From the NCBI GenBank assembly GCA_003246895.1, contig QKCL01000015.1, positions 20,795-84,794 of the forward strand: DNA of 64,000 nt, in the 5' to 3' direction. The translations under genes and the position numbers were made by a program. This document shows, piece after piece, positions 4,088-43,335 of the stretch. Origin of the DNA: Spirochaetota bacterium (lineage in GTDB: Bacteria; Spirochaetota; UBA4802; UBA5550). Numbering within the stretch: position 1 is the stretch's first letter; the number at the start of each line of letters is the position of its first letter. The notes beneath the pieces were generated by a model. That model was not told the origin of the DNA. It saw nothing but the letters and a program-made list of their open reading frames with translations, and did no database searches.

Positions 4088-5443
4088 CTAAAATCTGTTC
4101 TTCCAGTAATCATTCTTAAATACCCTGAAGCATGCATCCACAACATCCGGGTCGAAACTAGTGCCCTTATAGAGATTTATTTCATTCAATGCCGCTTCAA
4201 GTCCAAGAGATGCCCTGTATGGCCTGTGAGAGGCCATGGCTTCAACAACGTCTGCAACTGAGAGTATTTTGCTTTCCAGAAGAATTTCGTTCCCCTTCAG
4301 TCCATATGGATAGCCGGTACCGTCAATCTTTTCGTGGTGCTGTACAACAATATCAGCAATGGGCCATGGAAAATCTATATTTTTGATAATATCCCTTCCC
4401 ATTCTGGGATGAGACTTTATGAGATTGAATTCATCGTCACTAATTTTACCGGGCTTGCTCAGTATCTCTGCTGGTATGGCAATTTTACCCAAATCATGTA
4501 TCTGACCGGCAAGACGTATTCCCTCGACAACCTCACGTGGAAGAGACATCTCCTCTGCGATTGCCACTGCAATATGTGCAACATTCTGCTGGTGACCAGC
4601 TGTATATGGGTCTCTTGTTTCTACTACAGTTGACATCGCCTCTATCGTCCCATAAAGAATTCTGGAAAGGGCATCAAGATTTTCCTTTATCCTGTTCTCG
4701 AATTCAACCTGCTGCGTTATATCCTTTATGACCAGCACTGCGCCGTTAACTCTCCCGCTGCTCTCCCTTATGGGTGTTGATGTAAAGTCAATTGGTATTT
4801 TTTTCCCGGTTCTGACTGTCAGGTAATTACTGAACTCAGAATAGACTATTCCCATTGGTATGGGAATTCCTCCATCACTTCTCGGATCACTTCCTATTTT
4901 GACAATCTCTCCGACCTTTCTATTCAGGATATTTCTCTTCTCTATTTCAAGAAGCCTCTCTGCAGCTTCATTTATATAACCTATAATTCCGTTTTCCTCA
5001 ATTACAAGCACTGCATCGAGAATGTTGTTGAGAACAGTTGAAACCCTTACTTCGTTATCCTTTATTTTTCTTTCCATTGAATGTCTCACAAGGGCCATTT
5101 CAATGGCTGCCCGAAGATCCTTCTTGTCAAAGGGCTTTATTATATATCCGTAGGCATTGCTTTCCTTTGCCCTGTTTATTGTTGAAATATCCGATGATGA
5201 CGTTATATACACAAATGGAATCTGATCCCTGTTTTCTATACGGTTTGCTGATTCAATACCATCAAGTTTACCTTCAAGATTTATATCCATAAGAACAATA
5301 TGCGGCTTATCCCTGTTAATTATTTCCACGGCCTCCTCACCGGTTGCCACCGCTGCTACAAGATTATAGCCCAGGCCAAGAATATATCTCTGAACAAGTG
5401 TTGATGTTATCCTGTCATCCTCCACGAGCAAAACTTTATACAT
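4088..5443 (-). CDS. Response regulator with REC, PAS and HD-GYP domains (c-di-GMP phosphodiesterase type)
   Basis: The N-terminal REC domain (LLVEDD...LMDINL) is followed by a PAS-like middle region. The HD-GYP motifs are HDLGKIAIP and HHEKIDGTGYPYGL. Confidence 0.75.
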   Translation of the reverse strand: MYKVLLVEDDRITSTLVQRYILGLGYNLVAAVATGEEAVEIINRDKPHIVLMDINLEGKLDGIESANRIENRDQIPFVYITSSSDISTINRAKESNAYGYIIKPFDKKDLRAAIEMALVRHSMERKIKDNEVRVSTVLNNILDAVLVIEENGIIGYINEAAERLLEIEKRNILNRKVGEIVKIGSDPRSDGGIPIPMGIVYSEFSNYLTVRTGKKIPIDFTSTPIRESSGRVNGAVLVIKDITQQVEFENRIKENLDALSRILYGTIEAMSTVVETRDPYTAGHQQNVAHIAVAIAEEMSLPREVVEGIRLAGQIHDLGKIAIPAEILSKPGKISDDEFNLIKSHPRMGRDIIKNIDFPWPIADIVVQHHEKIDGTGYPYGLKGNEILLESKILSVADVVEAMASHRPYRASLGLEAALNEINLYKGTSFDPDVVDACFRVFKNDYWKNRF

Positions 5444-42583: not shown

Positions 42584-42646
42584 CAGTGGAATGCCATTTC
42601 CGGTTTCCCAAAGTGAATATCAGTATCTCATAGTGAATATCCCTGC

Positions 42647-42697
42647 CTGATTCTATAAAACCCCGGTCTTAATTAAAATCAAACCTAGGTGAGAGAG
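42647..42697 (+). repeat. Copy 1 of a roughly 48-bp direct repeat that carries an imperfect hairpin
   Basis: The sequence is TTCTATAAAACCCCGGTCTTAATTAAAATCAAACCTAGGTGAGAGAG. Confidence 0.7.
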
Positions 42698-42902
42698 TCC
42701 ATTGGAAATATCCAGAATTTTCAGTATCAGTTCCGGCCGCCTGCTGTCATCCCGGTTTCACGCAGTGAAGACCGGGATCTTATACCTGATGTTCAGGGCT
42801 TGCAAATCAAATTATGGTGAAATATAGTCATGGCTTTTTAGATTTAATATTATCTGCCGTCGTATTAATAATATGCAAAACCAGAATTACTACGTTTATA
42901 TA

Positions 42903-43166
42903 ATGACAAATAAGTATAATTCCGTTTTATATGCAGGAGTAACGAACAATCTGCCCAGAAGAATATACGAACATAAAAATCAAATAACTCAGGGATTTAC
43001 CTTCATTTATAACTGTAAAAAACTGGTCTGATATGAGATTCATCATGATGTCCGTTCTGCCATCAAAAGAGAGAAACAAATTAAAAGGTGGAAGAGGGTC
43101 TATAAACTTAACCTGATATCATTATTAAACCCTGACTGGAAAGATTTATATGAATCTATTCTATAA
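42903..43166 (+). pseudogene. GIY-YIG nuclease family gene (YhbQ/UPF0213-like) broken by one in-frame TGA at codon 43
   Basis: The translation is MTNKYNSVLYAGVTNNLPRRIYEHK...KKLV-TGA-YEIHHDVRSAIKREKQIKRWKRVYKLNLISL. The TGA at 43029-43031 falls where homologues usually have W or Y (LVWYE / LVYYE). Confidence 0.65.
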
Positions 43167-43205
43167 GACCCCGGTCTTGATTAAAATCAAACCGGGGTGA
43201 CAGAA
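43158..43205 (+). repeat. Copy 2 of the 48-bp direct repeat, with a better hairpin
   Basis: TTCTATAAGACCCCGGTCTTGATTAAAATCAAACCGGGGTGACAGAAG. Stem CCCCGGT/ACCGGGG with inner stem TTGATT/AATCAA. Confidence 0.7.
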
Positions 43206-43251
43206 GTACACTCAATAATGTTTATTGTTTTAATAGTAAGGAAAGTAAAAT

Positions 43252-43335
43252 TGCCGTGAGAGGGACTCGAACCCTCACAGGAGTACTCCCACCAGACCCT
43301 GAACCTGGCGCGTCTACCAATTCCGCCATCACGGC
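43252..43335 (-). tRNA. tRNA-Leu (anticodon CAG)
   Basis: Minus-strand RNA: GCCGTGATGGCGGAATTGGTAGACGCGCCAGGTTCAGGGTCTGGTGGGAGTACTCCTGTGAGGGTTCGAGTCCCTCTCACGGCA. 7-bp acceptor stem, D-loop GGAATTGGTAGA, loop TTCAGGG, long variable arm, TPsiC GGTTCGAGTCC. CCA not encoded. Confidence 0.8.

Follow-up and report, generated by a model that had tools for sequence, protein, structure and literature searches.

Introduction

The gene ssnA encodes a 94-aa protein that consists of a single GIY-YIG domain (cd10448) and is tied to a family of short repeats, the NTS of Neisseria (CGTCATTCCCGCGMAVGCGGGAATCYRG) and its relatives, the SRM (Chenal et al., Nat Commun 2025; PMC11893778). SRM are typically found on both sides of ssnA. 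At least one SRM lies near 71% of ssnA homologues, and 42% of the homologues have SRM on both sides (PMC11893778). The hairpin is bound by SsnA only as single-stranded DNA (ssDNA) and is cut a few nucleotides 5′ of its CGTC/TGTC head (PMC11893778). In N. meningitidis (Nm), DNA that carries NTS transforms less well in the presence of the system, the incoming DNA being trimmed, and nuclease activity is lost in the Y6A, Y17A and E64A mutants of Nm SsnA (PMC11893778). The CGTC-tagged REPs described by Di Nocera et al. in 2013 share this architecture in that they are tagged with CGTC/TGTC, begin their stems with A-T and have short tails, and they include dRS3 of Neisseria and RPE-4/6 of Rickettsia (PMC3733652). 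No dedicated enzyme or transposase was found for the CGTC-tagged REPs (PMC3733652); the work on Ssn later supplied one (PMC11893778).

A preliminary description of the window (the whole 64-kb stretch of DNA analysed here) drew attention to a GIY-YIG nuclease gene that contains a single in-frame TGA, is bracketed by direct repeats and lies next to a tRNA-Leu gene. This locus is most probably an ssnA-SRM unit in which a recent TGG-to-TGA mutation at codon 53 has inactivated the nuclease gene. It is a further example of a known system, with no novel element and no recoding.

The nuclease gene

The ssnA homologue, a single-domain GIY-YIG nuclease gene, occupies positions 42873..43166 of the forward strand. 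Its translation comprises 97 codons with one internal TGA and a terminal TAA at 43164-43166. A GIY-YIG reading frame with a lone in-frame TGA at 43029-43031 had been noted before and is borne out by the translation. The frame had been given 87 codons with the TGA at codon 43, which corresponds to a start at ATG 42903, 30 nt too far downstream. This start is rejected because it would cut off the catalytic tyrosine of the GIY motif. ATG 42873 is kept in the orthologue (MQNQNYYVYI vs MQTQNYYVYI), and with this common start the TGA is codon 53.

When the stop is read as W, the protein matches Pfam PF01541 (GIY-YIG) over residues 5-76 with E=6e-17. Domain searches detect the GIY-YIG domain alone and no further domain, and NCBIfam is without a specific model for the protein. 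A search of 5.8 billion clusters gives 4813 homologues, the best of them 67% identical. The homologues, thousands of proteins of ~95 aa, occur in nearly all bacterial phyla; no second ssnA copy is present within the 64-kb window. In the alignment, the residues that are invariant in the family (Y9, Y20, G22, R30, E33, H34, E67 and N86) are all kept in the window protein. The residues Y9, Y20 and E67 are spaced by 11 and 47 residues, exactly as are Y6, Y17 and E64 of Nm SsnA. On sequence grounds, the gene is probably a member of the Ssn family (SsnA, cd10448), an assignment based on residue spacing, the single domain and the association with repeats, with Nm SsnA compared by its published description. 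The placement in cd10448 is supported indirectly by the homologue set as a whole, which has the repeat association that is the hallmark of Ssn.

The label "YhbQ-like" given to the gene in the preliminary description is imprecise, since the UPF0213 proteins, the sole relatives with solved structures, are only distant profile matches; a single-sequence search of the PDB with the window protein returns no match. A free-standing GIY-YIG homing endonuclease was also considered and is ruled out by the single domain, by a TIGR01453 score of 18.7 bits against a cut-off of 56 and by a divergence equal to that of the neighbouring genes.

Hairpin repeats at the locus

Three hairpin copies are found in the 64-kb window, all of them at the ssnA locus. 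Two of these form the direct repeat that had been reported as 48 bp long. The repeat is real (42650-42696 vs 43158-43204), and two matches were never obtained in shuffles of the window; its length is 47 nt and its copies are 89% identical. The right copy, A2 (43158..43204, reverse strand), has its head TGTCA at 43202-43198 and its stem at 43168-43198. It overlaps the stop codon of ssnA, as had been claimed, the TAA lying in TATAAGAC. The left copy, A1 (42650..42696, reverse strand), follows directly after the peptidase M14 gene and is a decayed direct copy of A2 that carries the last ssnA codons (ATTCTATAA).

A third copy, B, was overlooked in the preliminary description. It is inverted relative to the other two, occupies 42741..42784 of the forward strand with its stem at 42749-42778, and was recognised by a pattern match and by the inverted-repeat pairs that it forms with A2. 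It reads cTGTC-AT-CCCGGTTTCAC-gca-GTGAAgACCGGG-AT-C-ttata, has the loop CACGCAGTG instead of GATTAAAATC and shows compensatory changes in the stem. B lies 88 nt upstream of ssnA with its head pointing away from the gene, and A2 lies across the stop; the TGTC heads of both thus face outward, and A1 and B form a head-to-head pair. The stems at this locus have 13 pairs with one bulge, the loops have 3-4 nt and the tail is CTTATA. The hairpins can be aligned with the NTS consensus of N. meningitidis in the head, the palindrome and the C that follows it, B having the form TGTC-AT...AT-C and the reverse complement of A2 the form TGTC-AC...GT-C. Rfam has no family for these hairpins.

Hairpins had been attributed to both direct copies, which holds for the right one only. 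As ssDNA, A2 folds with -11.8 kcal/mol (z -5.5) and B with -11.3 kcal/mol (z -3.8), whereas A1, in which three stem pairs are broken, attains no more than -1.8 kcal/mol (z +0.7). Two good hairpins in inverted orientation, B and A2, thus enclose the gene. In the Nm repeat, the G of the head matters most for cutting and the C after the palindrome for binding (PMC11893778); in A1 the head G has changed to C and the C after the palindrome to T.

It is scarcely conceivable that the hairpins are unrelated to the nuclease and serve the peptidase and GIY-YIG genes merely as transcription terminators or as stem-loops that stabilise RNA. One copy does follow each of the two genes, and REPs are generally located downstream of genes (PMC3733652). 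However, no copy is followed by a T-run, a terminator scan calls none of them, and ssnA is preceded by a copy in inverted orientation. Head and tail, both unpaired, are moreover conserved across phyla and tied to one gene family, and Nm SsnA recognises the motif in ssDNA but not in RNA.

A 20-nt tandem duplication (AAAGTGAATATC / ATAGTGAATATC) is located within 42600-42649, just upstream of A1. It loosely resembles the 3′ end of the ssnA coding sequence (AAAGATTTATATGAATCTATTC) and may be a relic of a longer copy of the end of the gene.

Hairpins across the Ssn family

The surroundings of the homologous genes were surveyed at 80 loci from species-representative genomes. Nearly all of them have, 3′ of the stop codon, the arrangement GA(T/C)-stem-loop-stem-(A/G)TGACA, with stems that covary from locus to locus. 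Counts were made on 83 homologous loci (L007-L086, L001, L002 and L006; 402 kb) by a rule consisting of G-A, five perfect pairs and T-GAC, with shuffled sequences as control. This 5-pair rule replaced a strict contiguous-stem detector and an energy-based picker, which under-called hairpins. The 83 loci, which come from many phyla, contain 447 motif sites against 20-34 in the shuffles (~26 expected by chance). The motif is present within 700 nt of the stop codon in 80/83 loci and stands just after the stop in 48; in inverted form it occurs within 150 nt upstream of the start in 58. No site lies inside the ORF in any of the 83 loci. The nearest upstream copy is oriented head-outward in 52/69 loci, at a median distance of 35 nt, as is the nearest downstream copy in 42/68 loci, at a median distance of 18 nt. 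These counts reproduce the published association of ssnA with SRM. A description of the locus as a new REP system with a GIY-YIG enzyme was accordingly set aside, the association having already been published by Chenal et al. 2025 (PMC11893778).

The published search string for SRM, HGTCWYN(0-2)YYVSBRHN(0-5)WNVSBRGN(0-2)RNCYNB, is a heuristic derived from 29 genomes and not a functional definition. It matches none of the three hairpins of the window and nothing in L001 or L002. In the 83 loci it gives 24 matches, with one within 1 kb of the gene in 10 loci, and 1-4 matches in the shuffles. The mismatch is treated as a limit of the search string and not as exclusion from the Ssn family. The string appears too narrow for members from the CPR, Chloroflexota, Spirochaetota, Cyanobacteria and Firmicutes.

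Some further observations concern the hairpins outside the window. The window stem (CCCGGTCTT...AAACCGGGRTGAC) has >120 exact pattern matches in metagenomes, where about one would be expected. Nearly all of these lie on high-GC contigs from soil or rhizosphere, have the consensus tATGGGT-CCCGGTCTT-cgcc-tgc-ggcg-AAACCGGG-ATGACa and are classic CGTC-type REPs. Two inverted copies, with 62-92 nt between them, are present at 11 of 80 such metagenome loci (L087-L166), and L105 is the only one of the 80 with an ssnA fragment beside the hairpin. In Melioribacter roseus P3M-2 (L006, 3600-4760) the ssnA homologue lies inside more than 1 kb of interleaved repeats that extend on both sides; here GTCAT...ATCTCA hairpins alternate with a second family (…GAGTTTGCTTCGTCG…CTCGCAAAGAC…). 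A c-di-GMP-I-GGC riboswitch (RF03167, 69 bits) is found at L053 (3772-3846), ~1 kb downstream of the ssnA homologue, to which it is probably unrelated.

The in-frame TGA

The TGA at codon 53 (43029..43031, forward strand) stands at a position where all aligned homologues have W or Y, in line with the preliminary description, and where the syntenic orthologue at L001 has W (TGG). Identity to this orthologue is 67.3% before the stop and 65.9% after it. The preliminary description had offered two explanations, a very recent nonsense mutation from TGG to TGA and programmed recoding. The change is best read as a recent inactivating TGG-to-TGA mutation of ssnA. The truncated product has 52 aa and is devoid of E67, the counterpart of E64 in Nm SsnA, where the E64A mutant has no nuclease activity (PMC11893778). 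Exact look-ups of this 52-aa sequence, and of one neighbouring protein, gave no match. Judged from the sequence, ssnA of the window has probably lost its function. The sequence 3′ of the TGA is without sign of decay, so that low-level expression by UGA readthrough might persist. Premature in-frame stops are also found in three other ssnA homologues, L042 (TAG, ~634), L064 (TGA, ~2522) and L071 (TAG, ~2726). They amount to ~4% of the sample of species-representative genomes and fall at differing codons.

That the TGA arose in sequencing or assembly, or belongs to a minority allele, and that the organism has TGG and an intact, functional ssnA, is unlikely. What would fit such an origin is that the ORF is otherwise intact, with a C-terminal part as conserved as the N-terminal one and with all catalytic residues kept. 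Against it, the Logan contig SRR7216773_2774157 (run SRR7216773) agrees with the window at every one of 758 nt, the TGA included; the two assemblies were built separately, although possibly from the same reads. A simple assembly error is improbable for this reason. The closest protein among the 5.8 billion clusters is only 67% identical, and no near-identical intact allele of the window protein is present among them.

UGA is the leakiest of the stop codons in bacteria. A TGA that is decoded, be it by readthrough, by a near-cognate tRNA-Trp or as selenocysteine, would yield full-length SsnA and perhaps keep a harmful nuclease at a low level. The lone stop sits exactly at a W codon with no further lesions, as would be expected in this case, and the leakiness of UGA would allow it. 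Decoding is nevertheless very unlikely. No stable fold lies directly 3′ of the TGA (-7.0 kcal/mol, z +1.28), W or Y is encoded directly in the orthologue and in all aligned homologues, the premature stops of other homologues fall at different codons and include TAG, and TGA serves as a stop throughout the window. TGA as a sense codon, which had been named as a condition that would overturn the mutation, does not apply to the window: it follows the standard genetic code, with ORFs of up to 1436 aa. Selenocysteine insertion or other programmed recoding of UGA is argued against by the z score of the fold and by the W or Y found in place of UGA in the orthologues; there is no SECIS-like structure, and the homologues have W or Y and not Cys.

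Synteny, descent and the tRNA gene

The tRNA-Leu(CAG) gene (43252..43335, reverse strand; ARAGORN and Rfam) lies 47 nt beyond the right repeat, as reported earlier, and is a neighbour and not a part of the system. The same arrangement is found at L001, the locus of the best match (P0001), where the peptidase M14 gene is followed by hairpin copies and then by a GIY-YIG gene that is intact and has W at codon 53; a hairpin lies over its stop, and tRNA-Leu(CAG) comes last. The peptidase M14 and the downstream 253-aa protein are each 67.4% identical between the window and L001. As ssnA and its neighbours are all ~66-67% identical to L001, the ssnA unit descends vertically, and its stop arose recently. 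The nearest named relatives of the host are MAGs of Spirochaetota and Leptospirales, with peptidases that are at most 54% identical.

A more distant locus, L210 (GCA_002754885.1), keeps the peptidase, tRNA-Leu(CAG) and two downstream genes. The 329 nt between its peptidase gene and the tRNA hold neither an ssnA remnant nor a GTCAT-type motif. By peptidase identities, the window groups with L001, and L208 with L210. The empty site of L210 together with this grouping shows that the unit appeared or disappeared as a whole, these data being compatible with either direction. At 2248-2310 of L210, directly after the peptidase gene, there is a long perfect inverted repeat (GTGCCAGGCACGAAA ... TTTCGTGCCTGGCAC), unrelated to the SRM hairpins.

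The preliminary description had regarded the unit as a compact cassette inserted next to a tRNA gene and had expected an empty site with a single repeat copy in relatives. Presence or absence as a block is indeed seen, L210 being empty; the other parts of this view do not hold, as the empty site is free of any repeat copy, the repeats are unlike the tRNA and the unit shows vertical descent. A site-specific integrative cassette that targets tRNA-Leu, with the 47-nt repeats as attL/attR or as a target duplication, would account for direct repeats around a gene beside a tRNA and for a relative with the same flanking genes and tRNA in which the unit is missing. It is nonetheless most improbable. 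The repeats do not overlap the tRNA and no copy marks the empty site. Ten surrounding ORFs were scanned, and no integrase or other mobility gene was found among them, those with Pfam matches being ordinary chromosomal genes. The divergence of ssnA equals that of its neighbours, and similar hairpins flank the homologues in both orientations and in variable number. Among 60 homologous loci, a tRNA within 2.5 kb is found in one (1/60), so that the adjacency to the tRNA is incidental and is ruled out as a trait of the family. A tRNA-targeting integrative element was likewise rejected, with no integrase, with repeats that are unlike the tRNA and 47 nt away from it, and with an empty site that is repeat-free. 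The direct repeats are SsnA-related hairpin motifs (SRM/NTS, CGTC-type REPs) and not att sites or target duplications.

Origin of the repeat copies

The upstream direct copy includes the last ssnA codons both in the window (42650-42696 / 43158-43204) and at L001 (4622-4687 / 5280-5345). Within a genome the two copies are 89% alike, while the loop and the inner stem are wholly different between the window and L001. This likeness within genomes suggests that the copies evolve in concert or have repeatedly been copied locally, as far as can be read from the sequences compared. The L001 copies in the orientation of the direct repeat now fold poorly (z about 0). In the window, A1 and A2 cease to be homologous 2-3 nt past the TGTC head, close to the reported cutting position of SsnA. 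The left repeat might be a fossil of SRM/CGTC-REP copying that starts at the repeat next to ssnA and for which nicks made by SsnA perhaps serve as primers, a proposal that we put forward as doubtful. If it were true, the locus would offer a handle on how SRM/CGTC-REP repeats spread, and the loss of ssnA would explain the decay of the upstream copy.

The ssnA locus and known systems

In the reading favoured here, the locus consists of an Ssn-family nuclease gene that is bracketed by its cognate, oriented hairpins with TGTC heads outward. The unit probably took its place between the genes for peptidase M14 and tRNA-Leu(CAG) before the L001 lineage diverged, and the catalytic glutamate would have been removed recently by the nonsense mutation at codon 53. 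The presumed 48-bp direct repeat would represent two SRM copies, one of them decaying, and the third, inverted copy would complete the usual SRM-ssnA-SRM architecture. By analogy with Nm SsnA, the full-length protein would cleave ssDNA. The locus need no longer be counted among the candidates for recoding of stop codons or for a novel cassette directed at tRNA genes. It provides instead a natural, probable loss-of-function allele of ssnA in a dated context: the orthologue is intact in one relative, and the site is empty in another. The cognate hairpins of this branch of Ssn are longer than the published SRM string allows. A structure-based rule, which finds the motif in 80/83 loci compared with 10/83 for the string, should be useful for cataloguing Ssn-repeat pairs as ssDNA tools.

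UPF0213/YhbQ-type proteins (PDB 1zg2 and 1ywl) are, like the window protein, stand-alone GIY-YIG domains of ~100 aa. Their similarity to it is confined to the profile level, with E=1e-5 and 9e-4, and unlike the window gene they have no known association with hairpin repeats.

The REP/RAYT (REPtron) and IS200/IS605 systems also comprise a small nuclease gene bracketed by inverted hairpins that are recognised as ssDNA. The repeats occur elsewhere as single copies or inverted pairs, and the gene is single-copy and vertically inherited. These systems are built on an HUH/Y1 fold and a GTAG tag, whereas Ssn combines GIY-YIG with CGTC, and Ssn is not known to transpose.

The CGTC-tagged REPs resemble the window hairpins in the unpaired CGTC/TGTC tag, the A-T start of the stem, the short loop and the head-to-head pair, here A1 with B. 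They have stems of 8-9 bp, loops of 4-5 nt, a CCA tail and tens to hundreds of copies per genome. The window hairpins, in contrast, have a longer stem, a loop of 3-4 nt, the tail CTTATA and three copies in 64 kb.

The closest likeness in both gene and repeats is to Ssn/SRM. The protein has ~95 aa, a single GIY-YIG domain and catalytic residues at the same spacing, the gene is arranged in the NTS-ssnA-NTS layout, and the hairpins have the CGTC/TGTC head, the GC-rich palindrome that starts with AT and the C after the palindrome. The window differs from the described systems in the premature TGA of its gene, in the longer stem (13 pairs with one bulge), which the published string does not match, and in its host, an uncultured lineage. 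Unlike SRM-rich genomes, it shows no expansion of the repeats within 64 kb, the three copies being gathered around the one gene that encodes their putative nuclease.
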